From positions 44,622 through 108,621 of the forward strand of contig JBFXKG010000012.1 of assembly GCA_050174015.1 (NCBI GenBank): 64,000 nucleotides of DNA. The letters are read 5' to 3'. Source of the DNA: Candidatus Krumholzibacteriia bacterium (GTDB taxonomy: Bacteria; Krumholzibacteriota; Krumholzibacteriia; LZORAL124-64-63). Every line of letters begins with the position of its first letter. The stretch's first letter is position 1. The notes under the pieces were generated by a model. It was not told the origin of the DNA and ran no database searches. It saw nothing but the letters and a program-made list of their open reading frames with translations. Positions 5,642 through 39,207 of this stretch are shown piece after piece. A program made the translations under genes and the position numbers.

Positions 5642-6406
5642 CTACCAGCGTGCGGGATCCACGGCGAAGTGCTCGCTCAGCACGGCGTAGAGGTCCCCGA
5701 ACTCCTGACGGAGATCCCGGGGCAGGCTGAAGAAGAGCTCCACCGCGGTGGCGAAGAACTCGGCGGGGGATTCGGCGGCGTTGTCGTCGAAAAGGATCTC
5801 CCTTCTCCGCCGCAGGCTGCGTTCGTGGCGGCTGAAGGCCTGGGCGAAGGCGTCCGACCAGCGCGCCAGCAGTTCCTGGGACCCGATCAGGGGAGCCCCG
5901 TCCGCCTCGCCCGTCTGTTCGTCAAGCTGGTGGGCGAATTCGTGGAGGACGACGTTGTAGCCCCCCTCCGGCTCGCCGAGCTCCTCGGTGACGTCCTGCC
6001 AGCTGAGGATCACGGACCCGCGCTGCCACGACTCCCCGGCCAGCTCGTCCGGGTCCTCGCTGACGATCCCGAACTCGTCCTCGACCTGGTGTTGGACGGT
6101 GAACGCCTCGGGATAGATCAGGACCGTGTCGAGACCGGGGAAGTAGTCGGCGTGGGGATGGACCTGGAGCAGGGCTGCCTGGCAGCAGACCATCAGGGGC
6201 ATCTCGGGTTCGAGCGCGAGCCCTCCGCATCCCTCGAAGTGCTTCTCCTCCATCAGGACCCTGGCGGCCGCACGGACCCTCCCCGCCACGTCGTCGGGCA
6301 GGCGGCGCAGCATGGGCACGCGGCTGCAGGCCAGGCTCCAGGCCGGATCGTCCAGGCCTTCTGCCAGCAACTGCCGGCGCTTGCGGTTCCTCCTGAAGAA
6401 GATCAT
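5642..6406 (-). CDS. MtfA-like Zn-dependent peptidase (M90)
   Basis: GESWQRGSVILSW, NVVLHEFAHQLD (HExxH), AESPAEFFA. Confidence 0.88.
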   Translation of the reverse strand: MIFFRRNRKRRQLLAEGLDDPAWSLACSRVPMLRRLPDDVAGRVRAAARVLMEEKHFEGCGGLALEPEMPLMVCCQAALLQVHPHADYFPGLDTVLIYPEAFTVQHQVEDEFGIVSEDPDELAGESWQRGSVILSWQDVTEELGEPEGGYNVVLHEFAHQLDEQTGEADGAPLIGSQELLARWSDAFAQAFSRHERSLRRRREILFDDNAAESPAEFFATAVELFFSLPRDLRQEFGDLYAVLSEHFAVDPARW

Positions 6407-6451
6407 GCCCTTATGGTACCCGGGGAACCGCCGGGGGGCAACGGCCGGATT

Positions 6452-7669
6452 CTACTCGTACCTGAGGGCCTCGATGGGGTTCAGGGCGGCGGCCTTGCGG
6501 GCCGGCCAGAATCCGAAGAACACACCCACTCCGGCGGAGAACCCCAGGGCCAGGCCCACGGTTCCCGGATCGATCACCGTCGGCCATCCGGTGATCTCGC
6601 CCACCAGCCGGCTGCCGCCGTAGCCGAGGCCGACGCCCAGCAGGCCCCCGAACAATGAGAGCACCACGCTTTCGACCAGGAACTGGGTGAGGACGTCGCC
6701 GGGACGTGCGCCGATGGCCATGCGGATCCCGATCTCGCGGGTCCGCTCGGTGACCGACACCAGCATGATGTTCATGATGCCGATGCCGCCGACCAGGAGG
6801 GAGATCCCCGCGATGGCCGCCAGCAGGATGGTCATGACCTCGGTGGTGCCGGTGGCCGCCTCGGCGATGTCGTTCTGGTTGCGGACGGTGAAGTCGTCCT
6901 CCTCCCATTCGGCCAGGCCGTGGCTCTCCCGCAGGATCACCCCGGCCTCGTCCATGGCGGCGTCGACGTCGTCCGGGGACCAGGCCGATCCGAGGATCTG
7001 GGGGATGAACTGGCGGCCGGAGAGACGCTCCTGGACGGTGGTGTAGGGGCACAGGACCATGTCGTCCTGGTCGCTCCCGTCGGCGGTCTGGCCCTTCTCG
7101 GCCAGGACCCCGATGACGTTGAAGGGGACTCCGCGCAGGATGACCTGCTGCCCGATGGCGCTCTGCTCGGGAAAGAGGTTCTGAGCGACGGTGGCGCCGA
7201 GGACCGCCACCTTGCGGCGCGACCGGATGTCCTTGACGTCGAAGAACTGCCCGTCCTCCAGATTCCAGTCGCGGACGGTCCGGTAGGAGACGTCCACGCC
7301 GTAGATGGGGGCGCGCCAGTTGCCGCCGCCGCCGCGGATCCGGGAGAAGGTCATGATCACCGGGGAGACCTCGGCCAGGAGCAGGGATTCGCGGGCGAGC
7401 TTGACCGCGTCGTCGACGGTCAGGCTGCTCATCGTGCCCGCGCCCCGGCTGACCCCGCCCGTCGTGCTGGCGCCGGGAGTGATGACCACCATGTTGGTCC
7501 CGAGGTTGCGGATGTTCTCCTCGATGCGCGAGCGGGCTCCGCTGCCGATGGCCACCATGACGATCACCGCGCCGACGCCGATGATGATGCCCAGCATGGT
7601 CAGGGCGCTGCGCAGCTTGGTGCGGGCGATGCCCCGCAGGGCGATCCGGATCAGCTGGTCGGGGCGCAT
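6452..7669 (-). CDS. MacB-like ABC transporter permease
   Basis: RSALTMLGIIIGV, periplasmic domain, GGIGIMNIMLVSVTERTREIGIRMAIGA, LNPIEALRYE. Confidence 0.93.
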   Translation of the reverse strand: MRPDQLIRIALRGIARTKLRSALTMLGIIIGVGAVIVMVAIGSGARSRIEENIRNLGTNMVVITPGASTTGGVSRGAGTMSSLTVDDAVKLARESLLLAEVSPVIMTFSRIRGGGGNWRAPIYGVDVSYRTVRDWNLEDGQFFDVKDIRSRRKVAVLGATVAQNLFPEQSAIGQQVILRGVPFNVIGVLAEKGQTADGSDQDDMVLCPYTTVQERLSGRQFIPQILGSAWSPDDVDAAMDEAGVILRESHGLAEWEEDDFTVRNQNDIAEAATGTTEVMTILLAAIAGISLLVGGIGIMNIMLVSVTERTREIGIRMAIGARPGDVLTQFLVESVVLSLFGGLLGVGLGYGGSRLVGEITGWPTVIDPGTVGLALGFSAGVGVFFGFWPARKAAALNPIEALRYE

Positions 7670-8409
7670 GCGACACCTCCGGTGGGCAGGGCGGCCAGGT
7701 CGACCCGGGCGTCGCCGCGGCCGGCGACCGGCTCGTCCCTGACGATCCGTCCGTCCCGCAGCTCGACGATGCGCCGGGCGTAACGGGCGATGTCCTGTTC
7801 ATGGGTCACCATCAGCAGGGTCAGCCCCTGGTCGTTCAGTTCCTGGAACAGGGCGAGGACCTCGATGCTGGTGCGGGTGTCGAGATTGCCCGTGGGTTCG
7901 TCGGCCAGCAGCAGGGCCGGTCCGGTGACCAGCGCCCGGGCGATGGCCACCCGCTGCTGCTGCCCTCCCGACAGCTCGTTGGGCAGATGGGAGGCCCGGT
8001 CGGCCAGCCCCACACGCTCCAGAGCCTTGCGGGCCAGGTCCCGGGGCCGGCCGGGCCGGCCGGTGCGGTCGTAGAGCAGGGGCAGTTCGACGTTCTCCAG
8101 GGCGCTGGTCCGGGCCAGCAGGTTGAAGCCCTGGAAGACGAATCCCAGCCTGCGGTTGCGGATGTCGGCCAGCCGGTTGCGGTCCAGGCTCTCGACCCGT
8201 TCGCCGTCCAGCTCGTAGCTGCCGGAGGTCGGCTGGTCCAGGCAACCGATGATGTTCATCAGGGTGGACTTCCCCGACCCCGAGGCTCCCATCACGGCCA
8301 CCATCTCCCCCGGCTCCACGACCAGGTCGATGCCCGCCAGGGCGTCCACCCGCGTGGCGCCCATGTCGTAGGTCTTGGTCAGCTCCCGGATGCGGATGAT
8401 GTCGCCCAT
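7651..8409 (-). CDS. ABC transporter ATP-binding protein (MacB/LolD-type)
   Basis: GASGSGKST, LSGGQQQRVAIARAL, LLADEPTGNLD; start set at MGDII (8409); 19-bp overlap with the permease. Confidence 0.93.
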   Translation of the reverse strand: MGDIIRIRELTKTYDMGATRVDALAGIDLVVEPGEMVAVMGASGSGKSTLMNIIGCLDQPTSGSYELDGERVESLDRNRLADIRNRRLGFVFQGFNLLARTSALENVELPLLYDRTGRPGRPRDLARKALERVGLADRASHLPNELSGGQQQRVAIARALVTGPALLLADEPTGNLDTRTSIEVLALFQELNDQGLTLLMVTHEQDIARYARRIVELRDGRIVRDEPVAGRGDARVDLAALPTGGVACAPTS

Positions 8410-8410
8410 G

Positions 8411-9685
8411 CTAGAACCCGCCCGGTCGCGGCGGACCCGATGGCCGGCCCTGCTGCTGGAAGGGCGAGCTCGCCGCCGCGGCGGCCTTGCTGGCGACGCC
8501 CGCGATGACCTCCAGTCCCTCGACCAGGTCACGCCCCTCGACGGCCGTGTTGGTGCCGTCGGTGATGCCGGTGCGGACCATGACGACGTCCAGGGTCCCG
8601 TCCTCGCGGGTCACCCAGAGCATGCCCCGGTCGGCGGGCATCGTGCCGCCGGGTTGCCCGCCCTGCCCGCCGGGCCCGGAGTCGGCGCCTTGACCGCGGG
8701 GACCCGTCGTCCCCTCCTCGCCCGGGCCCCGGCCTCGCTCGGCCCGCCTGCGCGCGAAGGCCGCGGCCATCTCTTCCTGGGACGGGCGGAAGCGGAGGGC
8801 GGCGTTGGGTGCGAACAGGACGTCGGTGGCCTCGTCGACGATGAAGTCGACGGTGGCGGTCATGCCGGGGAGCAGCCGCATCCCGGGATTCTCCACGCGG
8901 ACGACCACCTGGTAGTTGACGACGTTGTCGTCGACCACCGACTGCAGCCGCAACTGCCTGACGGTTCCCTGGAAGGTATCGTCCGGGTAGGCCTGGACCG
9001 TGAATCTGGTGGCCTGGCCTTCACGGATCCGGCCGATGTCGCTCTCGTCCACGGCCGCCAGGATCTGCATCTCGGTCAGATCCCCGGCGATCTGGAAGAG
9101 TTCGGGGGCGGAAAAGGAGGACTGGACGGTCTGGCCCACGTCGACCGATCGCCGGACGACGGTCCCGGCGATGGGGGCCGTGATGGTGGCGTAGGCCAGG
9201 TTCCGCCGGGCCCGGTCCAGGTCTACCCGCGCGCCCTTCAGACCGGCCCGGGCCACGTCCAGGCCGTACTGGACCCCGTTGAACTCGCTGGCCGAGATCA
9301 TCTCCTCGCGGAAAAGGGGTTCGGTGCGGGCGAACTCCCGTTCGGCCTGGCGGAGCTCCGCGGTCGCACGGTCCAGCTGGGCCTCGGCCGAGGCCACCGC
9401 CGCGGCCAGCAGGGTCGTGTCGATGCGGGCGATGACCTGCCCTGCGGCGACCCGGTCGTTGAAGTCGGTCAGGATCTCGTCGACGATCCCGCTGACCTGG
9501 GTGCCGACCTGGACGGTCGTGACCGGTTCGAGGGTCCCGGTGCTGGTCACCACGGAAGCCAGGTCGCCGCGGGCGACGGCGACCAGACGGAAGGAGGCGG
9601 CCTGGTCGCCGTCTTCGCCGCGCACCTGCCAGTAGACGGCGGCCGCGACCAGACAGAAGGCCAGGACGGTCAGGGCTCTTTTCAT
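8411..9685 (-). CDS. MacA/HlyD-family periplasmic adaptor subunit
   Basis: N-terminal anchor, VQVGTQVSG, alpha-hairpin, ITAPIAGTV, LLPGMTA. Confidence 0.92.
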   Translation of the reverse strand: MKRALTVLAFCLVAAAVYWQVRGEDGDQAASFRLVAVARGDLASVVTSTGTLEPVTTVQVGTQVSGIVDEILTDFNDRVAAGQVIARIDTTLLAAAVASAEAQLDRATAELRQAEREFARTEPLFREEMISASEFNGVQYGLDVARAGLKGARVDLDRARRNLAYATITAPIAGTVVRRSVDVGQTVQSSFSAPELFQIAGDLTEMQILAAVDESDIGRIREGQATRFTVQAYPDDTFQGTVRQLRLQSVVDDNVVNYQVVVRVENPGMRLLPGMTATVDFIVDEATDVLFAPNAALRFRPSQEEMAAAFARRRAERGRGPGEEGTTGPRGQGADSGPGGQGGQPGGTMPADRGMLWVTREDGTLDVVMVRTGITDGTNTAVEGRDLVEGLEVIAGVASKAAAAASSPFQQQGRPSGPPRPGGF

Positions 9686-9796: not shown

Positions 9797-9827
9797 AAAA
9801 AAGCCGGCGCCGCGGGGGCGCCGGCTT
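9797..9827 (-). terminator. Rho-independent terminator for the minus-strand paralog at 9848-10567
   Basis: AAGCCGGCGCC-GCGGG-GGCGCCGGCTT preceded on the plus strand by an A run (U-tract on the minus strand). Confidence 0.8.
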
Positions 9828-9847: not shown

Positions 9848-10567
9848 CTACTTGAACATGGCCTTGAGCGTGCCCCAGGAGGCGCTCTCGTTGTCCACGA
9901 TGCAGTTGACGTCCACCAGGGCGCAGCAGACGTCGAACAACTCGCCGCCGTTGGCTCCGCACAGGAAGGCGGGATAATCGGCAGGCATGGGGGAGGCCAT
10001 GCCGCTGTCCCAGACCTTCATGGCGTTGGCGATGGAGAAGCGGATCTCGCAGCCGTTGAGCTGGGGGCAGTTGTCGAACGTTCCGCTGAAGGTGATGTTC
10101 GAGGTCAGGCCGACGGGGACGCCACCGAAGAAGGTGATGGTGGCCACGACCTGGTAGCTGGTGAGCTGGCCGGACAGATCGGCCACCCCGTCGGACCAGG
10201 TGTTGTCCTTGGTCATCCAGAACTCCCCGCCGACGTAGTCGGTGGAGTAGGTGCGGGACCCGTTGCCGTACCCGTCGAGGGAGTCGTCGATGAGGGTGGC
10301 GCCGTTGGCGTCGATGGCCATCCCGAAGGCCTTCCATTCGGTGCCCAGGGTGGACCCGTTCCAGGACATGGCGTTCTGGGTGTTGCCGGGCTGGCCGGGT
10401 TGCAGGGGAGCTCCGTCGACGCCGCACCAGGCTTCGGAGGCGCGGCCGCCCAGCATGGTGCCGTTGTAGGTGGCCCAGGCGCCGTTGAGGTTGGGGCACT
10501 GGGCGGAGGCGAGGGTCGAGACGAGCAGGAGCAGCAAGACCAGGGAAGCCGTTCTCAAGATGTGCAT
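9848..10567 (-). CDS. Secreted Cys-rich hypothetical protein (239 aa) with C-terminal SWGTLKAMFK tail; paralog 2
   Basis: Signal peptide ending ASA-QC, GGAGG RBS, 8 Cys conserved with the neighbouring paralog. Confidence 0.88.
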   Translation of the reverse strand: MHILRTASLVLLLLLVSTLASAQCPNLNGAWATYNGTMLGGRASEAWCGVDGAPLQPGQPGNTQNAMSWNGSTLGTEWKAFGMAIDANGATLIDDSLDGYGNGSRTYSTDYVGGEFWMTKDNTWSDGVADLSGQLTSYQVVATITFFGGVPVGLTSNITFSGTFDNCPQLNGCEIRFSIANAMKVWDSGMASPMPADYPAFLCGANGGELFDVCCALVDVNCIVDNESASWGTLKAMFK

Positions 10568-10749
10568 GGGGTACCTCCGAACCGGTGTCAGGAATATCGA
10601 AACGATTCAGGATCCTTCTGGGGATTCGCCCTGGTCCGTCGGGCAGGACAATGATACGGCAAAAGAAAAGGCAATGTCAATAAATTCCGCCCATGGGCGG
10701 ATAGCCGCGGGGCCCGATCCGGCTCCGCGGCATCCCCCTCGCGTCCACG

Positions 10750-11469
10750 TCACTTGTACTGGGCCTTCAGGTCGCCCCAGGAGGTCGGTTCGGTGTCGAT
10801 GGCGCAGGCGATGTCCATGCTGATGCAGCAGACGTCGAAGAATTCCCCCGCACTCGCCGAGCACAGGAACGCGGGGTAATTGGCCGGCATGGGAGTGGCC
10901 ATGTTGGTGTCCCAGATCTTCATGGCGTTGGCGATGGCGAAACGGACCTCGCAGCCGTTGACCGCCGGACAGTTCAGGAAATCCCCGGTGAAGGAGATGT
11001 TGCTGGTGGCTCCCATGGGGATCCCCGTGTAGAAGGTGATGGTCGTGAACACGACGTAGGACGTCAGGACGCCCTCGAGGTCGGCCGCACCGTCGGCCCA
11101 GGTGTTGTCCCGGGTCAACCAGAACTGCCCGCCCAGGTAGTTGGTCCTGTAGGTCCGCGTCCCGGTCCCCGATCCGTCCAGGGTGTCGGAGATCAGGACG
11201 GCGCCGGCGCCGTCGATCTCCATGCCCCAGGCCTTCCACAGGGCCCCCAGGGCGGCCCCGTTCCAGGACATGGCGTTCTGCGTGTTGCCGGGCACTCCGC
11301 CCTGGATGGGCATCCCTCCGGACCCGCACCAGGCTTCCGAGGCCCGGCCGCCGGTCATGGAGCCGTCATTGGTGGTCCAGTAGCCGTTGAGGTTGGGGCA
11401 CTGGGCCCAGGCCGCCGCAGCGATCAGGACGAGCGCCGCCGTGAGAATGAGCATTGTCATGGTGCGCAT
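10750..11469 (-). CDS. Secreted Cys-rich hypothetical protein (239 aa) with C-terminal SWGDLKAQYK tail; paralog 1
   Basis: Start set at MRTMT (11469) after GGAGG; signal peptide ending AWA-QC; ungapped colinear with 9848-10567. Confidence 0.88.
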   Translation of the reverse strand: MRTMTMLILTAALVLIAAAAWAQCPNLNGYWTTNDGSMTGGRASEAWCGSGGMPIQGGVPGNTQNAMSWNGAALGALWKAWGMEIDGAGAVLISDTLDGSGTGTRTYRTNYLGGQFWLTRDNTWADGAADLEGVLTSYVVFTTITFYTGIPMGATSNISFTGDFLNCPAVNGCEVRFAIANAMKIWDTNMATPMPANYPAFLCSASAGEFFDVCCISMDIACAIDTEPTSWGDLKAQYK

Positions 11470-11868: not shown

Positions 11869-12825
11869 TTGCGGACACGAACAAAACTTCGGGTTGAGCT
11901 GACGAGGCACGCCCTGGCGAGGGCGGCCGGGTTGGCTCTGGCGACGGGCCTCCTGCTGGCCCTGCCCGTGCTCGCCGCCCAGGGAGGGGCGGGCCAGGTT
12001 TGCCTGGATTGTCATGAGGATCAAGCAAGCAGTCTGGAATTCGGACCCCACAGCCTTTCCCCGGGCGGCGAGGGCAGGTTGAACTGCCTGTCGTGCCATG
12101 ACGGCGACCCCCGACACTGGGAGGACGATCCTTCTTCCTACCCCATGGCCAATCCGGCCGACATGGGCGGCGAGGAGGCCGGCAGGCTCTGCGGCCGGTG
12201 CCACGATTCGGTCCACCAGATCAACCAGCAGACGGTCAGCCCCCATGCGGCCGCCGGCGTCTCCTGCCTGGCCTGCCACCAGGTCCACGGCAGCGAGCTC
12301 CGCGGGTCGCTGGTCTCGGAGCAGCCGGGACTCTGCTTCGGATGCCACGCAGGGCAGCGGGCCGACTTCGCCCAACCGTTCCATCACCCTGCCGACGAAG
12401 GGTTCATGGACTGCAGCGATTGCCACCTGAAGTCCGACGACGGGTGGGATTCCCTGGTGATGCGCGGCGGCGACGCCGTCTGTCTCGGTTGCCATGCCGA
12501 GTTCCAGGGGCCGTTCCCCTTCGAACACCAGGCCGGAGTGGGATACTCCACCGAGGAGGGCAGCTGCCTCAACTGTCACGAGCCCCACGGTTCGGCCCAT
12601 CCCCGGCTGCTGAAGCAGCCTTACGAGGGGCCCCACTTCCAGCTCTGCTCCCAGTGCCACTCGGTTCCCGGGCACCGCGACAACAGCCAGCACGGAACGG
12701 AGTGGGCGGACATGGCCTGCGGTGAGTGCCACGTGGACATCCACGGCTCCTACACCAGCAGCAAGTTCTTCGCGCCGATCATCGAGGCCCAGGGCTGCAA
12801 CACCCTGGGTTGCCACCAGCGGTAG
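11869..12825 (+). CDS. MtrA/DmsE/PioA-like periplasmic decaheme cytochrome c, plus one CX4CH motif
   Basis: 10 CXXCH (CLDCH, CLSCH, CGRCH, CLACH, CFGCH, CSDCH, CLGCH, CLNCH, CSQCH, CGECH), GPFPFEH and CHEPHGS DmsE-type segments, signal peptide; TTG start is uncertain. Confidence 0.88.
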   Translation: MRTRTKLRVELTRHALARAAGLALATGLLLALPVLAAQGGAGQVCLDCHEDQASSLEFGPHSLSPGGEGRLNCLSCHDGDPRHWEDDPSSYPMANPADMGGEEAGRLCGRCHDSVHQINQQTVSPHAAAGVSCLACHQVHGSELRGSLVSEQPGLCFGCHAGQRADFAQPFHHPADEGFMDCSDCHLKSDDGWDSLVMRGGDAVCLGCHAEFQGPFPFEHQAGVGYSTEEGSCLNCHEPHGSAHPRLLKQPYEGPHFQLCSQCHSVPGHRDNSQHGTEWADMACGECHVDIHGSYTSSKFFAPIIEAQGCNTLGCHQR

Positions 12826-12837
12826 GAGGAGGCTGAA

Positions 12838-14400
12838 ATGCGACGGATTGCAACGATTTCAAGCCTGGCCGCCCTGCTGCTCGTGCTGGCCTTGCCGGCG
12901 GCTGCGGAATCCCTGAAGGGGACGGTCAAGCTCGGAGTCATCACCAAGGACGAGGACACGAGCGACGTGACGGCCATCCAGGAGACGGTCAACATCCACG
13001 ACGGATTCTCCGTCACCCAGGTGGCCCTGCGCGGGGCCCTGGGCGGCGGCAGCGCCTTCCGCCTCGACCTGGAGGAGATGAACCTCGATTCGCGGCGGGG
13101 TTACTTCAACTACCGGCTGCAGGATCGCCTCCACCTGACCGCGCGTTACGATCGCCGCCGGCATCTCTTCGACGCCGACGGGGCCGTGGAGAGCGAACGG
13201 GAGAAGTGGATGTTCGGCGCGAGGGTGACCCCGGCGGACTGGCTGCGGATCACCGGGGACTATTCCCGGCAGACCCGCCAGGGCGACCGTCTTGGTTACG
13301 GGGCCGGCTTCCAGAGCTGGCTGGGCGACGCCTACGATTACACCTTCGGGATCGGCCGGGTGGAGGCCGAGGCGCGCCGGGGCGCCCGGGCCTTCGCGGT
13401 CGGATTCGAGACCAGCAGCTTCGAGGACGCCCAGCTGACCGCGGCCGACCGGACCGGGCAGGTCTTCTCGGCCCGCGCCAACCTGCCTTGCCTGCTGTGG
13501 CCCGGCAAGCTGTCGCACTACCTGCGGGGCACCCTCGGCGAGCAGAAGCTCGACCAGGGGGGATTGGCCTACACCATGTCGACCTTCCAGTACGTCGGCG
13601 TCGCGCGGCCCGTCCGGCCCTTCCAGCTCGACTACCGGTTCTTCGGCAGCAGGGTGGAGGACGACGCCACCGGCCTGCAGACCGACGAGGTCCGCAACGA
13701 CTTCGACCTGACCTGGCATCACGCCCACGGCAAGGTCTTCGGCGGTTACGGCTACTTCACCAACGACAACGAGAGGTCGCTGACCAGCGACAACGTCTGG
13801 CGCGTCGGGACGGTGGTCGGCGACGGCAAGGTCTTCAAGGGCAAGGTCAGCTACGCCAGCAGCGAGAAGACGGACACCGAAGGCCTGACCCTCCTGAAGG
13901 ACATCGAGGCCAGCCGGCTCCGGTTTAGCCTGGACGTCAATCCCGACGACAAGATGAACTTCGGCGTCTCCTACATCGACCATGACCGGACCTTCCCGGT
14001 CATCGGGGTGGAATCCTCCGGACTCCGCTACGCGGCCCGGGGCGGCTACCGGCTGGACGGCCTCGGCGCCTTCAACCTGACCTACAGCTATTCGGACGAC
14101 GAATACCAGGACCTGGCAGGCTCCTTCCAGGCGGACAACCACGCCGTGACCGGTCGTCTGGACATCGATCGCTTCCGCGACCTGAAACTGTCGGCGGGGC
14201 TGACTTACCTCGACATCGGCAAGGACCTGGACATCGAGAAGTCCATCCTGATGTTCGCCGGCGAGTACGCCCTGCAGGACGATTACTTCGTGGAGGTGAA
14301 ATACAACGTCTACAACTACGACGATTTCATCCTCATGGATCGCTACTACACCGCGAACGTGGTGTGGGTGAATGTCGGCTACAAGCTTTCGATCGACTAG
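12838..14400 (+). CDS. Outer-membrane beta-barrel, MtrB/PioB-like porin
   Basis: Signal peptide, alternating amphipathic Tyr/Gly-rich strands, no CXXCH, directly after the decaheme gene with a GGAGG RBS; 520 aa. Confidence 0.78.
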   Translation: MRRIATISSLAALLLVLALPAAAESLKGTVKLGVITKDEDTSDVTAIQETVNIHDGFSVTQVALRGALGGGSAFRLDLEEMNLDSRRGYFNYRLQDRLHLTARYDRRRHLFDADGAVESEREKWMFGARVTPADWLRITGDYSRQTRQGDRLGYGAGFQSWLGDAYDYTFGIGRVEAEARRGARAFAVGFETSSFEDAQLTAADRTGQVFSARANLPCLLWPGKLSHYLRGTLGEQKLDQGGLAYTMSTFQYVGVARPVRPFQLDYRFFGSRVEDDATGLQTDEVRNDFDLTWHHAHGKVFGGYGYFTNDNERSLTSDNVWRVGTVVGDGKVFKGKVSYASSEKTDTEGLTLLKDIEASRLRFSLDVNPDDKMNFGVSYIDHDRTFPVIGVESSGLRYAARGGYRLDGLGAFNLTYSYSDDEYQDLAGSFQADNHAVTGRLDIDRFRDLKLSAGLTYLDIGKDLDIEKSILMFAGEYALQDDYFVEVKYNVYNYDDFILMDRYYTANVVWVNVGYKLSID

Positions 14401-32959: not shown

Positions 32960-35900
32960 ATGATGGACTCGCCCCTTCGCATCCTGGTTCCTGCCTGCCT
33001 GGCGATCCTCCTGACCGGGACCGCCGTGGCCGGAACCGATCTCGAACTGCGGTCGGTGCTCGCCGTCGACAGGGTGGGGGTCGAGGACTCGCTCTCCCCC
33101 GCCGCGGACATCCTGTCGGTGACCATGTATCGCGACGCCGCACTCGACCGGGACGTCCTGCGGATCGCCTTCCTGTCCCTGGGGCGGCAGGCTCCTCCGG
33201 ATCTGATGGCCGCCCTGGCCTCGGCGTCCGCGGCGCCCATCGATGTGATCGTGACCGACAGGTCGACGCCGTCGGAGGCCTTGCTGGCGGAGGCCACGCT
33301 CCATGACCGGGGATCGGTCTACCTCCCGGCCGAAATGCCCGTGAACAAGGCCCGCACGGGAACGGTGTGGACCGTGCCCGACGATCCCGACGCCCTCTAC
33401 CTGACGTTGCCCCGGGGACTGGCCGCCGGGGCCGATGCCGTGAATCCCCTGCGGATCGCGGTCCGGTCCTCCCACGCAACCCCGTCCGGGGCCATCGTCG
33501 CCGACGAGGTGACCGCGGCGTATCCCGCCGACAAGGCCTACCAGGCCAACTGCTCCCTGGTCCTTCACGGCAATCAGGGCCTCGGTTACAGCGACGTCTT
33601 CCACGGCCGCAGCGACGATCTCGAGGGCAGCGGTTTCGACGAGGCCCTGCAGGTGCATCAGGGGACGGGCGTCCCGGGCAACTTCCACCTCAGCGGGACC
33701 CTGCAGTCGTCCGCCGAGTGGGCGGCCAACAACGGGGACCCCACCGACTTCAACGCCTGGCTGGCCGCCGGGGTGACCGCCGGCTGGGCCGGAATGGTCA
33801 CCTCCGCCTACGCCCAGCACATCATGCCCTTCGTCACCGACGACATGAACGACTGGGCGGTCGCCATCCAGGCCCAGATGACCGACACGCGGTACGGCTA
33901 CTTCCCGACCGTGGCCTGGGTGCCCGAGCGCGTCTGGCTGAACACCGGCGGCTATCCCAGCAGCGGGGTGAACGACTGGATCGGCGACAACTGGCTCCCC
34001 CACGGAGTGGGCGCCGTGATCCTCGACGACGACGTCCACCTCACCGGCCACGACAATCACCAGATCCACACCCTCTCGGGCAGCAGCCTGCGTCTGGTGC
34101 CCCGCGACCGCGCCTTCACCGGCAACATCCTGGGCGGCAACGGCCAGGCGTCGCTGGACATCCTGACCGGTCTGGCCGGCAGCGGCGTGGGCGAATTCCG
34201 CATCGCGGTCCTGGCCGAGGACTGGGAGGCCATCGGCGAGATGGGGGGCTGGGCGACCATCACGCCCAACGCCAAGGAGACCTACGACTGGTTCGTGGGC
34301 AAGTGCAGCACCGAGAGCGCCTGGCTCAGCACCTGGAAGCTCGCCGACGCCGTCGCCAACCCCGACTTCAACGGCGGCACGATCACCGTGACGCCGGGCA
34401 CCTACCAGGAGATCGGCGGCTTCGACGGCTACGGGGGCGGGGACAACGGCTGGTACACCCACTGGGCAGGCTTCGTGCCGTACGCCAACGGCGGCGACGG
34501 CAACGGGTCCTGCGCCGGAACCGGAGGCAACTGCAAGGACTACGGCACTCTCTGGAGCGACGCCTACAACGCCCTGATGGCCGCCCCCGACAACAACATC
34601 AGCCAGGCCGGCTGGTACGTGATGATGACCAACCTGCACGAGACCGCCTGGCACGACTACCTCGGCGGGCCCATCTCGGGCTGGCAGCACAAGTACAGCG
34701 CGCACATCAAGAATGCCATGATCTACGCGGAGGCGGCCCACTGGGCCAACGGCGACTACGCGGTGACGACCGCCGCCTTCACCAGCGACGTCGACAACGA
34801 CGGGTACCTCGAAGTGGTCATGCACAACGACCGTCTGTTCGGCGTCTTCGAGGGCAACGGCGGCCGCTTGACCCACCTGTTCGTCAAGGGATCCGGCAAG
34901 GCCGGCATCTTCAACGACACCGCCATCGGGGTGGACAACGCCTACTGGTCCGACACCGAGGGCGACTTCAACGACGCCAACCACGTGGGGGCCTTCAGCG
35001 ACGTCTCCCCGAACTACCAGCATGACGGGTACGGGTGGGCCATCGGCCCGGTGGACCCCGCGGGGCCCACGGTCACCCTGACGTTGACCCGCAACGAGGT
35101 CGCCAAGACCGTCGCCCTGACCGAAGGCGACAGCTTCTTCGACGTGGTCTACGACGTGGGACCGGCCACCCACTGGATCCAGGCCGGGTTCTCGCCCAGC
35201 CTGGTGGATCTGGTCTGGAACGCGCAGATGGACCGGATCTGGGCCCCCGACGCGGCCTACATGGGGCAGCGCAATCCCAGCACCGGGGTGACCGCAGCCT
35301 GGGTCCTGGGTTCCGGAGGCGCCGGCCACCAGCGGGACTTCTCGGGAACCCTGATGAAGGGCGACGAGATCAAGGGCGAGGGCGTGTTCCAGCTGCGGCT
35401 GTTCGCCGGGGTCACGAGCGCTCCGGACGTCGCCGGCGACGTCGCCGAGCTGCGCGCCATGGTGCCCGAGGTGACCGACACCATCGGGCCGGCCGTCACC
35501 GCGGCGGTCTATTACCCTGCCACGGACCGGCTGCAGCTGACCTTCGACCAGATCGTGGCCGGCTGCGATCCGTCCGGCGTGGCCGTGGTCGAGGGGGCCG
35601 GCGCCACCACGGTGGTGACCTTGCCCGTGTCCACTCCGGTCAGCGAGACCGGACCTGCGATCACGCGGACCTTCGAGCTGGATGCCGGCACCGCCGCCGC
35701 CGTCGAGGCCCTGGCCGGCGACCTCTACCTGACGCTGGACGCCGATGCGGCCCTGGACGGGAACGGTGTGGGAAACCTGGCCGTCGTCGCAGGCGAGATC
35801 CCGGTGGATGTCGCAGCCACGGCCATCGCCGTCGACGGCAACGTCGAGGCGGGGGAATGGGAGAACGCCCTGGCCCTGGCCGACAGCAACGACTCGGCCT

Positions 35901-36790
35901 GGACGGCCGCCAACGAGATCGACCGGCTGCTGGTCCACTGGGACCAGGACTACCTGTACCTGGCCATCGACGGCCAGGTCAGCGCCAACAGCTGGCTGCT
36001 GTACCTGGACGTCGATCCCGGGACCGCAAGCGGGCAGACCGACCTGACGGCCATCGACTCCTGGGAGCGGGGCGCCTCGTTCAGCGCGCCCGGATTCGCC
36101 CCCGACTTCCAGTACGCCTGCTACCAGCACCAGTCGGTGTGGGACGGCGACGGGTTCTGGCAGCTCCTCTCGCCGACGGCGACCCAGGACCGGTCCGGCG
36201 AGGTCGAATCGGCCTTCGACTCCTACCACACCTTCGGCGACGCTTCCGGCAGCGAGATCGCCATCCCCTGGAACACCCTTTACGGCCTGGGGGCGGGCCA
36301 CGTCCCGCCGGGGGCCCAGCTCGCCCTGGCGGCCGCGATCTGCTGGGATCCCGAGCCGGGCGGGGAACTGGGCGGCGATTCGGCTCCCGACAATCTCGCG
36401 GCATCGTTGCCGGTGATCGACAACGCCTGGACCGTCCCCGTCGACGGTGATGGCGACGGGCGCCCCGACGGGAGCGGCCTGTCCCCGGTGCCGGCGGTCG
36501 ATCCGTCCCTGGTCCGGCTCCTGCCCAACGTGCCCAACCCCTTCAATCCCGTCACGTCCATCCATTTCGAGGTGTCGGGCTCCGAGGCCGTGGACGTCGA
36601 GCTGACGATCTACGACCTGAGGGGCCGCCTGGTGACGACCCTGGTGCGTGGGCCGATGGCACCCGGCGCCCACGAGGCCGTCTGGGACGGCCGCGCCGCC
36701 GACGGGCGTCCGGTTTCCGCCGGAACCTATTTCAGCAGACTGCAAAGCCGCGGGATGGCCTGGACCCGCCCGCTGTCACTCGTCAAGTAA
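32960..36790 (+). CDS. Secreted multidomain GH57-family glycoside hydrolase (GH57 + DUF1926-like + Ig-like + DOMON/CBM9-like + FlgD-Ig)
   Basis: Signal peptide; GH57-type regions LHGNQ, WVPERVW (Glu nucleophile) and AEDWE; DVDNDGYLEV...GGRL as in the 4-alpha-glucanotransferase C-domain; VDGNVEAGEW...DYLYLAI; PNPFNP FlgD-type tail. Confidence 0.75.
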   Translation: MMDSPLRILVPACLAILLTGTAVAGTDLELRSVLAVDRVGVEDSLSPAADILSVTMYRDAALDRDVLRIAFLSLGRQAPPDLMAALASASAAPIDVIVTDRSTPSEALLAEATLHDRGSVYLPAEMPVNKARTGTVWTVPDDPDALYLTLPRGLAAGADAVNPLRIAVRSSHATPSGAIVADEVTAAYPADKAYQANCSLVLHGNQGLGYSDVFHGRSDDLEGSGFDEALQVHQGTGVPGNFHLSGTLQSSAEWAANNGDPTDFNAWLAAGVTAGWAGMVTSAYAQHIMPFVTDDMNDWAVAIQAQMTDTRYGYFPTVAWVPERVWLNTGGYPSSGVNDWIGDNWLPHGVGAVILDDDVHLTGHDNHQIHTLSGSSLRLVPRDRAFTGNILGGNGQASLDILTGLAGSGVGEFRIAVLAEDWEAIGEMGGWATITPNAKETYDWFVGKCSTESAWLSTWKLADAVANPDFNGGTITVTPGTYQEIGGFDGYGGGDNGWYTHWAGFVPYANGGDGNGSCAGTGGNCKDYGTLWSDAYNALMAAPDNNISQAGWYVMMTNLHETAWHDYLGGPISGWQHKYSAHIKNAMIYAEAAHWANGDYAVTTAAFTSDVDNDGYLEVVMHNDRLFGVFEGNGGRLTHLFVKGSGKAGIFNDTAIGVDNAYWSDTEGDFNDANHVGAFSDVSPNYQHDGYGWAIGPVDPAGPTVTLTLTRNEVAKTVALTEGDSFFDVVYDVGPATHWIQAGFSPSLVDLVWNAQMDRIWAPDAAYMGQRNPSTGVTAAWVLGSGGAGHQRDFSGTLMKGDEIKGEGVFQLRLFAGVTSAPDVAGDVAELRAMVPEVTDTIGPAVTAAVYYPATDRLQLTFDQIVAGCDPSGVAVVEGAGATTVVTLPVSTPVSETGPAITRTFELDAGTAAAVEALAGDLYLTLDADAALDGNGVGNLAVVAGEIPVDVAATAIAVDGNVEAGEWENALALADSNDSAWTAANEIDRLLVHWDQDYLYLAIDGQVSANSWLLYLDVDPGTASGQTDLTAIDSWERGASFSAPGFAPDFQYACYQHQSVWDGDGFWQLLSPTATQDRSGEVESAFDSYHTFGDASGSEIAIPWNTLYGLGAGHVPPGAQLALAAAICWDPEPGGELGGDSAPDNLAASLPVIDNAWTVPVDGDGDGRPDGSGLSPVPAVDPSLVRLLPNVPNPFNPVTSIHFEVSGSEAVDVELTIYDLRGRLVTTLVRGPMAPGAHEAVWDGRAADGRPVSAGTYFSRLQSRGMAWTRPLSLVK

Positions 36791-36801
36791 GGAGGATTCG
36801 C

Positions 36802-39207
36802 ATGCGACTGATGAACGGAATGACCGGCGGGTTCCTGCCGGTGGTGGCTGTCCTGGCGCTGCTGGCGGGCGTGGCTTCGGCCCAGACCCCGCAGACCATC
36901 GTCCTGGACGGCGTCAACGACTTCCTGCCCGGAAACCTGATCGACCCCGACGGCGGCGACACCCAGTTTCCCAACATCGACCTGGGCGACTTCTACCTGA
37001 CCAACGACGCGGTCAACCTGTACGTGGGCATGGCCCACGATCAGGGCGGCTGGGGCAGCGTGCAGCTGGGCCTGGCCATCGACGTCGACACTGCAGCCGG
37101 CGGCGACACCGATCCCTGGGGCCGGCAGCTGGAATGGACCCTCGCGCCCTTCAAACCCGACTTCATCTTCTACGTCAACCTCGACAACAACTGGCAAGCG
37201 AGCTACCGCTGGGACGCCGGGAGCTGGACCAACCTGAACCAGGGCCCCGGCAGCTTGAACTGGCAGACCGGCACCGCCTTCCGGGAACTGGCCGTCATGC
37301 TCGGCACCCTGGGCGTGGCCCCCGGCGGCACCCTCCACGTCGAGGCCTGGGTGACCCAGGACGGCGGGACCAAGGGCCCCCTGGATGCGGCCGCGGGCGA
37401 CGGCGACCAGCTGTCCACTCCGGGCTTCACCCTCTGGGATACCGCGGTGGCCATCCCCATGACCGCCATGCATCCCTACGCCGTCCAGGCCGCCGCGGAT
37501 CCCAATCCGCCGGTGGTTTCGGGAGTCGAGCCCACGGGATTCCCCGTGGATTCCTTCTTCGACGTCTTCTTCAACGAGCCGGTGGACCAGGCGACCGCCG
37601 AGACCGCCGGCAACTACGCCCTGGCCGGCGCCACCGTCACCGGCGCGGTCCGGGACGCCGGCGACCCGAGCATCGTGCACCTGACCCTCGGCGCTCCCCT
37701 GGCCGAGTCGGCCTCCCTGTACAGCTTGACGGTGACGGGGGTCAAGGATCTGGCCGGCAACACCATCGTCAACGACGGTTCCGGCAACGTGGCCTGCTTC
37801 ATGCTCAAGAAGGTCGTGTTCCGCGGCCTGTTCGGCCCCTTCCTGGCCAACCAGGGCGTCGGTCCCCATGCCTTCTCGGTCGAGGGGGATACGCCCCCGC
37901 TGACCTTCGGGGCAACCTGCGACACCGGCATCATGACCGACACCGGCGTCGACGACATCTGGGAATTCGAGACCATCTTCCTGGTGAACGGGGACTGCGT
38001 CGGGGGCACGGCCACGGCCGACGTCCAATGGAAGTTCAACTACAACTGCACCACCTACGAGCCCCTGGCGAGCAACCGGGTCCACACCCTGGACCTGGCG
38101 AACGGCGCCACGGACGTCATCGAGGTCTACTGGAACGACCAGGATCCCTCGGCTTTCACCGCCCACGACATCGACGTCGAGTTCTTCGTGGACATGAACG
38201 ACTCGGCCTACCAGCCCGGCGACACGGTGACCCTCAACGGCTCCGTCCTGCCCCTGACCTTCGACGTTCCCTCGCTGACCGCGATGGTCGACGACGGGAC
38301 GGGCAACGACGCGACCGCGGGCGACGGGATCTTCTCCGGCCTGGTGACCTTCCCCGCCGGGGCCATCAAGGACGTCACCTACAAGTTCCTGCTCAACGAC
38401 GCGTACGAATGCGCCACCCAGGGCGACCGGTACCTGTTCCTCAACGACGAGATGTTCGACACGGTGGGAGGGACCCTCGGGCCCCTGACCCTTCCGGTCG
38501 TCCATTACGACTTCTGCAACACCCTGTGGCGCGCGGTCGAGGTGGTCTTCAGCGTCGACTTCAACGGCACCGGCTGGGAATCCATCGGCCCCGGCGACGT
38601 GGTCGGGGTCAACGGCACGCCGAACAACGCGGAGCCCCCGACGTTCGACTGGTCGGTGCCCTCGCTGAACACCATGGCCGACGACGGCGTGTATCCCGAC
38701 CTGGTGGCCGGCGACAAGATCTACACCGTGGCCGTGGTCTTCCCGGACACCAGCAGCCAGAACATCGAGTACAAGTTCCTGGTCAACGACGTGTACGAAT
38801 GCTCCACCCAGAGCAACCGCACGGCCTCGCTGGACCCGGACAACCACGATGCGACAGGCAATCCCCAGATCCTGGCGGTGGACGTGTTCCAGCGCTGCAA
38901 CATCACGGACGTCCCGCTCGCCGGCCGGTCCCGGGTGACCCTGCAGCAGAACGCCCCCAACCCGTTCAACCCCATGACGGAGATCCGCTTCACCGCGGCC
39001 CGCGAGGGCCGGGGCAGCCTGCGGATCTACAACGCGCGCGGCGAGCTGGTCCGCACCCTGCTGGACGGGGTCATCGCGGCCGGCGAGGGCTCGGTCATCT
39101 GGAACGGCCGGACCGACAACGGCAACCAGGCCGGCAGCGGCGTGTACTTCTACCGTCTCGAGGTGGCCGGTGACTCGGTCAGCAAGCGGATGGTGCTCTT
39201 GAAGTAG
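36802..39207 (+). CDS. Secreted non-catalytic multi-module carbohydrate-binding protein (DOMON-like + Ig-like + three CBM20-like/choice-of-anchor-X repeats + FlgD-Ig)
   Basis: Signal peptide ASA-Q; internal repeats V.F.VD...M.DDG...D..AGD.I...YKFL.ND.YEC; PNPFNP tail; AAGGAGG RBS 11 nt after the GH57 stop. Confidence 0.7.
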   Translation: MRLMNGMTGGFLPVVAVLALLAGVASAQTPQTIVLDGVNDFLPGNLIDPDGGDTQFPNIDLGDFYLTNDAVNLYVGMAHDQGGWGSVQLGLAIDVDTAAGGDTDPWGRQLEWTLAPFKPDFIFYVNLDNNWQASYRWDAGSWTNLNQGPGSLNWQTGTAFRELAVMLGTLGVAPGGTLHVEAWVTQDGGTKGPLDAAAGDGDQLSTPGFTLWDTAVAIPMTAMHPYAVQAAADPNPPVVSGVEPTGFPVDSFFDVFFNEPVDQATAETAGNYALAGATVTGAVRDAGDPSIVHLTLGAPLAESASLYSLTVTGVKDLAGNTIVNDGSGNVACFMLKKVVFRGLFGPFLANQGVGPHAFSVEGDTPPLTFGATCDTGIMTDTGVDDIWEFETIFLVNGDCVGGTATADVQWKFNYNCTTYEPLASNRVHTLDLANGATDVIEVYWNDQDPSAFTAHDIDVEFFVDMNDSAYQPGDTVTLNGSVLPLTFDVPSLTAMVDDGTGNDATAGDGIFSGLVTFPAGAIKDVTYKFLLNDAYECATQGDRYLFLNDEMFDTVGGTLGPLTLPVVHYDFCNTLWRAVEVVFSVDFNGTGWESIGPGDVVGVNGTPNNAEPPTFDWSVPSLNTMADDGVYPDLVAGDKIYTVAVVFPDTSSQNIEYKFLVNDVYECSTQSNRTASLDPDNHDATGNPQILAVDVFQRCNITDVPLAGRSRVTLQQNAPNPFNPMTEIRFTAAREGRGSLRIYNARGELVRTLLDGVIAAGEGSVIWNGRTDNGNQAGSGVYFYRLEVAGDSVSKRMVLLK

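Follow-up and report, generated by a model that had tools for sequence, protein, structure and literature searches.

A new enzyme or secretion system was found through each of the signals LPXTG, PEP-CTERM, GlyGly-CTERM and the C-terminal domains (CTDs) of the type IX secretion system (T9SS), and all are now standard tools for predicting surface proteomes. The PEP-CTERM signal comprises a PEP motif, a transmembrane helix of about 18–20 residues and an Arg cluster; in the T9SS, the signals known are folded β-sandwich domains of 70–100 aa. Here we describe a much shorter element, located at the C-termini of two secreted paralogous proteins (A and B) encoded in a 64,000-nucleotide stretch of DNA from Candidatus Krumholzibacteriia bacterium (contig JBFXKG010000012.1; this whole stretch is called the window below). 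The element is modular, strictly C-terminal, carried by signal-peptide proteins, selected at the protein level and, among the matches listed, found in FCB-type candidate phyla. It is interchangeable with PEP-CTERM and the T9SS CTD on a homologous body domain. Judging from these sequence comparisons, we favour, as rather likely, the explanation that the last ~17 residues of both paralogs form a portable C-terminal post-Sec sorting or anchoring tag read by a dedicated receptor.

The paralogs lie on the minus strand (Table 1) and are 64% identical. They end in ...CIVDNESASWGTLKAMFK (A) and ...CAIDTEPTSWGDLKAQYK (B), each followed by a stop codon, and share the tail E-x-x-S-W-G-x-L-K-A-x-[FY]-K-stop, where an earlier sequence-only reading of this DNA had placed it. 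In six frames of the 64-kb window (68% GC), the pattern WG.[ILVM]K occurs in paralogs A and B only, and scans of both proteins against Pfam and NCBIfam matched no model. Their secretion, also proposed earlier, is in agreement with Sec-like N-termini consisting of M, a basic residue, a hydrophobic stretch and A-x-A before QCP. The mature part of each paralog contains eight Cys, which is consistent with an oxidising extracytoplasmic location. The suggestion that Gln follows the signal peptide, as in many T9SS cargos, holds for both paralogs (QCP) but fails as a general rule: AQC is found in 47 of 95 family members and, with the cleavage site crudely guessed, Gln stands at +1 in about 10% of tail proteins.

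Since within the window just the two paralogs carry the tail, it might be simply the last structural element of one protein family, with any resemblance elsewhere due to chance or to a DNA repeat. Two independent scans refute this explanation, to which we give practically no credence. The first covered one genome per species in GTDB (596 Gb of DNA) with the pattern [ST]WGxIKxxYR plus a stop codon, for which we estimate roughly 50 chance matches from the information content. It returned at least 120 loci, and about 130 of the 133 matches listed end long open reading frames (ORFs). Only three of the at least 120 loci lack a long ORF and look like chance matches (in Sulfurimonas, Herpetosiphon and Methylococcales), and these are the only ones from unrelated taxa. 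The second scan, of JGI metagenomes, used a pattern without the stop codon and yielded at least 127 matches from at least 120 loci, 123 of the matches listed being in long ORFs. With the last 14 residues removed, the bodies of the GTDB tail proteins fall into 69 BLAST clusters, of which the window family is one, with four loci (of about 119 ORFs listed). The at least 112 metagenome tail ORFs form about 67 body clusters, and two of the 112 listed belong to the window family. Thus, about 70 unrelated body clusters carry the tail in each collection, which bears out the earlier expectation that the motif would be found on many unrelated N-terminal domains and not in this paralog family alone.

Pfam matches of the tail-bearing bodies include Beta_helix/NosD (15 proteins), LTD, NHL, CBM_20, InhA-like MAM, pectate lyase, CHRD, plastocyanin and others. 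The NCBIfam matches comprise choice-of-anchor families V, W and J, rhombosortase- and myxosortase-dependent M36 peptidases, ScyF (a PEP-CTERM protein) and ExeM/NucH nucleases, i.e., families known elsewhere with other C-terminal sorting signals. Some body families were found with either the tail or a FlgD_ig CTD. Among the GTDB matches listed, the named hosts are mostly Eisenbacteria/Eiseniibacteriota (about 45 loci), Krumholzibacteriota and Latescibacterota, with some Cloacimonadota, Gemmatimonadota and Zixibacteria, as well as 'Effluviviaceae'. One locus each comes from metagenome-assembled genomes (MAGs) labelled Acidobacteriota and Udaeobacter, possibly binning noise, and many loci are labelled just 'bacterium'. 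Of the three phyla named in the sequence-only reading, Krumholzibacteria and Eisenbacteria are hosts, whereas Poribacteria, and likewise Bacteroidota, are absent from the named GTDB matches listed.

The tail is bound to the very end of the protein. Among the 123 in-frame metagenome matches listed, a stop codon follows immediately in 110, after 1–3 codons in 10 and after 4–13 codons in three, and none is internal; about 5% immediate stops would be expected by chance. Similarly, a relaxed regular expression without a stop requirement gave 168 matches in the GTDB loci, 156 of which end exactly one residue before the stop. The tag extends over about 17 residues, P-[TV]-P-[VT]-E-x-[ST]-[ST]-W-G-x-I-K-[AS]-[LM]-Y-R-COOH. 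A profile of the last 30 residues has conserved positions outside the search pattern, namely Pro at −17, Thr/Val/Ser at −16, Pro at −15, Val/Thr at −14, Glu at −13, Ser/Thr at −11, Ala/Ser at −4 and Leu/Met at −3, with Cys enriched at −18 to −21. Upstream of about −20 the information content is at background level, and the conservation of the tag holds when 53 body clusters are weighted equally. W and K are invariant, and Gly nearly so, in 134 aligned tails, most of which come from searches that required W and K; more than 95% of tails terminate in R or K. The window tails are variants of the consensus (L for I, F or Y, K for R), as are those of many family members.

The codons used in the tails vary, including four for Gly, six for Arg, both for Tyr and all three stops. 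Such free synonymous variation indicates selection on the peptide and rules out a DNA-repeat or REP-like (repetitive extragenic palindromic) origin. Together with the drop of conservation to background upstream of the tag, it also speaks against the tail being a family-specific or chance feature.

The association of the motif with signal peptides, anticipated in the earlier reading, is pronounced. An N-terminus was called signal-peptide-like if it had a start codon and a non-negative n-region and if a window of 10 uncharged residues reached a mean Kyte–Doolittle value of at least 1.9. Among the matches listed, such N-termini are present in 96 of 104 full-length GTDB tail ORFs and 87 of 94 metagenome tail ORFs (about 92% overall), as compared with 131 of 397 (33%) control long ORFs from the same GTDB loci.

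Two side observations concern the stop codons of tail genes. TAG terminates 60% of them (n = 116), as against 30% of the remaining ORFs (≥150 aa) of these GTDB loci (n = 402), while the search pattern gave all three stops equal weight; for FlgD_ig-CTD genes the proportion is 54% (n = 26). Codon context behind Arg/Lys may account for this excess, or it may be characteristic of genes for secreted proteins. Secondly, an in-frame TGA occurs in three small secreted proteins with the tail, homologues of one another from different MAGs (L115:2461-3000, minus strand; L051:2551-3123, minus strand; L083:589-1365, plus strand). It is situated at a conserved spot, G-[LI]-[GS]-TGA-[GS], about 62 codons before the TWGxIKxxYR end, with a stem-loop roughly 18–23 nt downstream. 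These could be secreted selenoproteins, with a selenocysteine codon and a bSECIS-like hairpin, or cases of programmed readthrough.

A word-indexed search with the window proteins gave 95 homologues of 188–285 aa, mostly about 235–240 aa, including P0003, the sequence of which is that of paralog B itself. The few named family members belong to Krumholzibacteria, Latescibacterota and 'bacterium' MAGs without classification. Of the 95 homologues, all found via the body sequence, 89 end in W-[GS]-x-[ILVM]-K-x-x-[YFH] plus one residue, far more than chance would give, usually with S or T before W and with R, K, Q, E or N in the last position. Within 10 kb of a homologue from the window family, P0017 (locus L123, minus strand), there is an unrelated 287-aa tail-bearing ORF ending in ...VPVRSATWSAVKALFR and a stop. 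It uses the W-S and F variants, and hence strict search patterns miss part of the tail class. AlphaFold2, run with the family alignment, predicts for paralog A an all-β body of long antiparallel strands (mean pLDDT 90, pTM 0.81), followed by a lower-confidence linker at residues 222–230 and a terminal helix at residues 231–238 that stands outside the β body (pLDDT about 75). A Foldseek comparison of this model with the PDB found nothing significant (best E 0.06, TM score below 0.3).

A predicted terminal helix brings to mind C-terminal membrane anchors, such as the C-terminal helices of PBP5 and PBP6, which bind the membrane and, like the tail, are short and located on Sec-exported proteins without a transmembrane segment. 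The tail could in this case be a self-sufficient envelope anchor, in which interfacial Trp/Tyr and Lys/Arg bind anionic lipid, lipopolysaccharide or peptidoglycan with no machinery involved. W, Y, I/L, K and R are indeed typical of interfacial peptides, and a flexible Pro/Thr-rich linker precedes the tail. The helices of PBP5 and PBP6 are, however, about 18 aa long, clearly amphipathic and poorly conserved, while the tail has 10 aa, near-invariant W, G and K, and no significant amphipathicity. The latter had been claimed in the sequence-only reading and is not supported, since the tails have an ordinary helical hydrophobic moment. It amounts to 0.33 and 0.16 in the two window tails, and the 0.52 of the consensus is reached by 17% of shuffles. 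Ten residues are also very short for a membrane anchor. The invariance of W and K, the near-invariance of Gly and the fixed one-residue distance to the C-terminus in about 70 unrelated families from several phyla point to sequence-specific recognition, which lipid binding would not need, and direct anchoring would leave unexplained how β-helix, carbohydrate-binding module (CBM) or nuclease-type domains arrive at the surface. We therefore regard it as rather improbable; a peptide with near-invariant W, G and K and a constant register relative to the carboxylate more closely resembles the ligand of a protein receptor.

A further indication of the role of the tail comes from the distant relatives of the window proteins. 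An exhaustive HMMER search with the family profile against 1.84 billion representatives yielded 272 proteins at E ≤ 0.001, and the endings were read in the best 150 of them. About 107 have the tail or a close variant, 12 have PEP-CTERM, one has the T9SS type A signal, and the rest are fragments. The 12 PEP-CTERM relatives end with ...[IV]-[PT]-E-P, a hydrophobic helix and RRRR, and the PEP_CTERM model TIGR02595 matched in six of six tested body homologues at 18.7–28.6 bits (cutoff 16). The T9SS relative is a 985-aa distant homologue with a FlgD_ig-like end that matches TIGR04183 at 35.5 bits (cutoff 23). In the relatives of both kinds the profile alignment ends at the last β-strand, and the alternative signal starts where the linker of the tail would. 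One domain with at least two different C-terminal sorting signals is what NCBIfam calls a choice-of-anchor domain, and by this comparison of endings the window family is a surface or secreted domain of that type: its body occurs with the tail, PEP-CTERM and the T9SS CTD. Several other tail-bearing proteins match the curated models choice_anch_V, W and J; the window body differs from these families in lacking a curated model, and the tail is not among the anchors by which they are defined. Since the tail takes up the position that known sorting signals have in relatives, we consider it a probable, as yet undescribed label for protein sorting.

As a side observation, in the PEP-CTERM relatives P0211, P0221, P0222, P0249 and P0250 the last body strand, located just before the PEP motif, reads ...WG[VI]xQKIxMxI. 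It loosely recalls the WGxIK core but aligns to the body strand ELFDVCCITxxI rather than to the tail, and the likeness is probably coincidental.

The sequence-only reading knew of no described machinery for the tail, and this view stands. No model in Pfam-A (2025) or NCBIfam 20.0 (June 2026) matched it, even with isolated 40-aa tails at E ≤ 10, and nothing relevant on the motif, or on T9SS and protein sorting in the host phyla, turned up in full-text searches of the literature. In a search of a set of 5.8 billion proteins with a 40-aa tail profile, the word prefilter passed only 19 short candidates, from which 14 fragments were obtained. The tag resembles the PEP-CTERM/exosortase signal in its location at the extreme C-terminus of Sec-exported proteins, its modularity, its restriction to certain lineages and a Pro/Glu motif before the terminal segment, as well as in the position that the two share on the window body domain and its distant homologues. 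In place of the transmembrane helix and the Arg cluster, however, the tail has about 10 residues past the linker and a single terminal basic residue. The paralogs continue for nine residues past Trp to end in ...LKAMFK and ...LKAQYK, the stop codon coming one residue after [FY], and TIGR02595 matches neither the paralogs (E ≤ 1) nor the isolated 40-aa tails (E ≤ 10). The earlier statement that the tail contains no transmembrane helix and is thereby unlike PEP-CTERM or LPXTG is thus confirmed. The same direct reading, together with the lack of any NCBIfam sorting-signal match, sets it apart from LPXTG/sortase, GlyGly-CTERM/rhombosortase and MYXO-CTERM signals.

The T9SS CTD (TIGR04183/PF18962, and the FlgD_ig-like PF13860) is likewise a C-terminal signal, carried by extracellular or surface proteins while they are soluble intermediates in the periplasm; it occurs in the same genomes and window as the tail, on related bodies, and also has a basic last residue. 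In agreement with the sequence-only reading, the window encodes two large proteins with FlgD_ig/T9SS-like CTDs (Table 1), so that both types of ending coexist in one genome. The protein at 36802–39207 (plus strand) contains in addition two choice-of-anchor X repeats (NF041940, 5.6e-10) and Big_5; hence curated choice-of-anchor domains already carry a T9SS-like ending in this genome. By a strict regular expression, 27 CTD-like ORFs are present in 23 of the at least 120 8-kb GTDB loci, and clustering reveals more. The tail might, therefore, be a second, minimal cargo signal of the T9SS-like system that serves the FlgD_ig CTDs, a short label read by the T9SS shuttle, translocon or sortase with no new machinery required. 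This explanation would account for the coexistence of the two endings in the window and in many loci, for the same body families bearing either of them and for the basic residue at the end of both, and T9SS is known from the FCB group, to which all the host phyla belong. We nevertheless consider it unlikely, though not far-fetched. The tail has neither sequence nor length similarity to T9SS CTDs, as PF18962, PF13860 and TIGR04183 match neither the paralogs nor, even at E ≤ 10, the isolated tails. A T9SS CTD is a folded Ig-like domain, whereas the tag is linear, with about 17 aa that include a helix of 10 residues. Only the last 17–20 residues are conserved across families, and the AlphaFold2 model has a linker and an 8-residue helix in place of a β-sandwich. 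Finally, no named match listed comes from Bacteroidota, the main T9SS phylum.

A conserved distance to the free C-terminus is also a property of PDZ ligands. The β-signal of outer-membrane proteins (Y-x-F, read by BAM and the DegS PDZ domain) is, like the tail, a short motif for which the register to the C-terminus matters. It ends, however, with an aromatic residue on an amphipathic β-strand of a barrel, while the tail ends with Arg/Lys, is predicted to be helical and sits on soluble β-helix, propeller, CBM and cupredoxin domains. By the logic of Prc/Ctp/DegS-like systems, the tail could instead be a handle for processing or quality control, i.e., a C-terminal propeptide or degron recognised by a periplasmic PDZ-type protease or chaperone and involved in maturation or turnover; the exact distance to the C-terminus would suit such a handle, and the conserved P-x-P-[VT]-E linker could be its cleavage site. 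On the other hand, hundreds of stable extracellular-type domains would be an unusual place for a degron, and both the replacement by PEP-CTERM or a T9SS CTD on the same domain family and the choice-of-anchor-type bodies point to sorting, which makes this a very improbable explanation.

Type I secretion, in turn, is defined by the absence of a Sec signal, whereas about 92% of the tail proteins have a signal-peptide-like N-terminus. As the tag lacks the defining features of PEP-CTERM-type signals, T9SS CTDs, β-signals of outer-membrane proteins and type I secretion signals, we rate it as a new kind of C-terminal tag. We propose to delimit the class by three features, namely a Sec signal peptide, a Glu/Pro-rich linker and a motif that ends one residue before the stop; both window paralogs have all of them.

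The earlier proposal of a C-terminal export or anchoring tag is supported by the modularity of the tail, by the signal peptides and by the exchange with PEP-CTERM and T9SS signals; the function itself, i.e., the sorting or anchoring role, the protein receptor and the destination of the cargo, we infer from sequence. In the tag, as we picture it, a Cys would close the folded domain and an extended Pro/Thr/Val-rich linker with Glu at −13 would lead to [ST]-W-G-x-[IL]-K-x-x-[YF]-[RK] and the free carboxylate. After Sec passage across the inner membrane the signal peptide would be cleaved, the Cys-rich β domain would fold and oxidise in the periplasm, and the linker would present the short terminal helix. 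A dedicated receptor would then read W-G-x-I-K-x-x-Y-R together with the exact distance to the C-terminus and pass the cargo on, across the outer membrane, to an attachment on it, or both. Cleavage of the tag within the linker may accompany this hand-over. The tag would in this way do the job that PEP-CTERM/exosortase and the T9SS CTD do on homologous domains elsewhere. A further step, which we find plausible but put somewhat short of an even chance, is that the tail is the address label of an undescribed sorting system, in which a receptor, translocon or transpeptidase reads the 10-residue C-terminal motif and exports or surface-attaches periplasmic cargo. Such a system would be specific to the FCB candidate phyla Eisenbacteria, Krumholzibacteriota, Latescibacterota, Cloacimonadota, Zixibacteria and some Gemmatimonadota.

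Several observations weigh against a receptor-read sorting tag. No known post-Sec sorting signal is nearly as short as the tail, which also lacks a transmembrane anchor that would hold the cargo at a membrane-bound enzyme. All-against-all clustering of 701 ORFs from the at least 120 GTDB loci revealed no recurrent non-cargo family beside tail genes; the multi-locus neighbour clusters consist only of FlgD_ig-CTD cargo, large regulators or kinases, and housekeeping genes (the last judged by eye). No candidate receptor, peptidase or translocon is found among the neighbours of tail genes in these loci, and the genes around three homologues of the window family differ from those in the window. The tail hosts are all uncultured MAGs, the confidence of the predicted terminal helix is moderate, and the signal-peptide and cleavage-site calls come from our own crude heuristic rather than from SignalP. 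Totals and taxonomic range from both DNA scans are lower bounds; because I (in the metagenome scan its codon ATC), Y and R were fixed positions of the patterns, L/F/K variants like those of the window are under-sampled.

Table 1. Coordinates of the paralog genes, their tags and signal peptides, and other features of the window.
Feature	Position	Strand	Description
Paralog A	9848..10567	−	239 aa, secreted, Cys-rich, all-β, uncharacterised family, C-terminal tag; from ORF list
Tag A with stop codon	9848..9904	−	C(−18) IVDN E(−13) SA S-W-G-T-L-K-A-M-F-K-stop; matches cross-family profile
Signal peptide, paralog A	10499..10567	−	MHILRTASLVLLLLLVSTLASA before QCP; putative cleavage site, read from sequence; AlphaFold2 helix 2–20
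Paralog B	10750..11469	−	239 aa from MRTMTM...; architecture as in A
Tag B with stop codon	10750..10806	−	C(−18) AIDT E(−13) PT S-W-G-D-L-K-A-Q-Y-K-stop
Signal peptide, paralog B	11404..11469	−	MRTMTMLILTAALVLIAAAAWA before QCP; putative cleavage site, read from sequence
Terminator-like hairpin 3' of paralog A	9801..9827	−	11 bp, 9 GC, then T-run; splits A from MacAB-like operon
Terminator-like hairpin 3' of paralog B	10686-10701 (element 10651..10701)	−	
Promoter-like site for paralog A	10651-10680	−	TTGACA-18-TATCAT
MacAB-type tripartite exporter	5642-9685, including peptidase	−	same strand as paralogs, directly downstream
HlyD-family adaptor	8411-9685	−	HlyD_D23
ABC ATPase	about 7651-8412	−	ABC_tran
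Permease	6452-7672	−	MacB_PCD/FtsX
M90 peptidase	5642-6406	−	MtfA-like; after exporter genes
Multihaem c-type cytochrome	11869-12825	+	paired CXXCH, cytochrome c7/c3-like
520-aa secreted protein	12838-14400	+	directly after cytochrome; no Pfam match, β-strand-like alternating C-terminus
FlgD_ig/T9SS-like CTD	36524..36790	+	in large secreted protein at about 32960-36790; PF13860 4.6e-10, weak PF18962/TIGR04183
FlgD_ig/T9SS-like CTD	38956..39207	+	in secreted protein at about 36802-39207; PF13860 1.1e-9, TIGR04183 22.3 bits

With terminator-like hairpins of their own and the promoter-like site of A, the paralog genes look monocistronic. The MacAB-type exporter encoded immediately downstream was considered as a partner of the tail and rejected: each paralog is closed off by a hairpin, A has the promoter-like site in front of it, and three homologues in other assemblies have unrelated neighbours. 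As the exporter genes are absent around these homologues, we treat the adjacency as incidental, and dependence of the tail on a type I assembly of ABC, membrane fusion protein and TolC components is likewise unsupported. Tail genes often form tandem paralog arrays of two to four copies, as in the window (9848–11469) and in the GTDB loci L002, L019, L032, L053, L069, L111, L014 and L035, which suggests rapid local expansion of cargo families. On the other side of the paralogs, the cytochrome gene and the gene for the 520-aa protein (11869–14400) resemble porin–cytochrome electron conduits, and a further multihaem cytochrome was seen by eye from about 63100.

The host phyla are common in soils, sediments and groundwater and have no cultured members. 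In these uncultured lineages, the tag labels many and varied proteins, probably extracellular enzymes and binding proteins. It could improve the annotation of hundreds of "hypothetical" proteins, provide a query set for phylogenetic profiling that could reveal the machinery, and serve as a transplantable label of 10–17 residues for export tests in diderm bacteria. If the tail is indeed the address label of an undescribed system, it would represent a third solution beside exosortase-type and T9SS-type signals.

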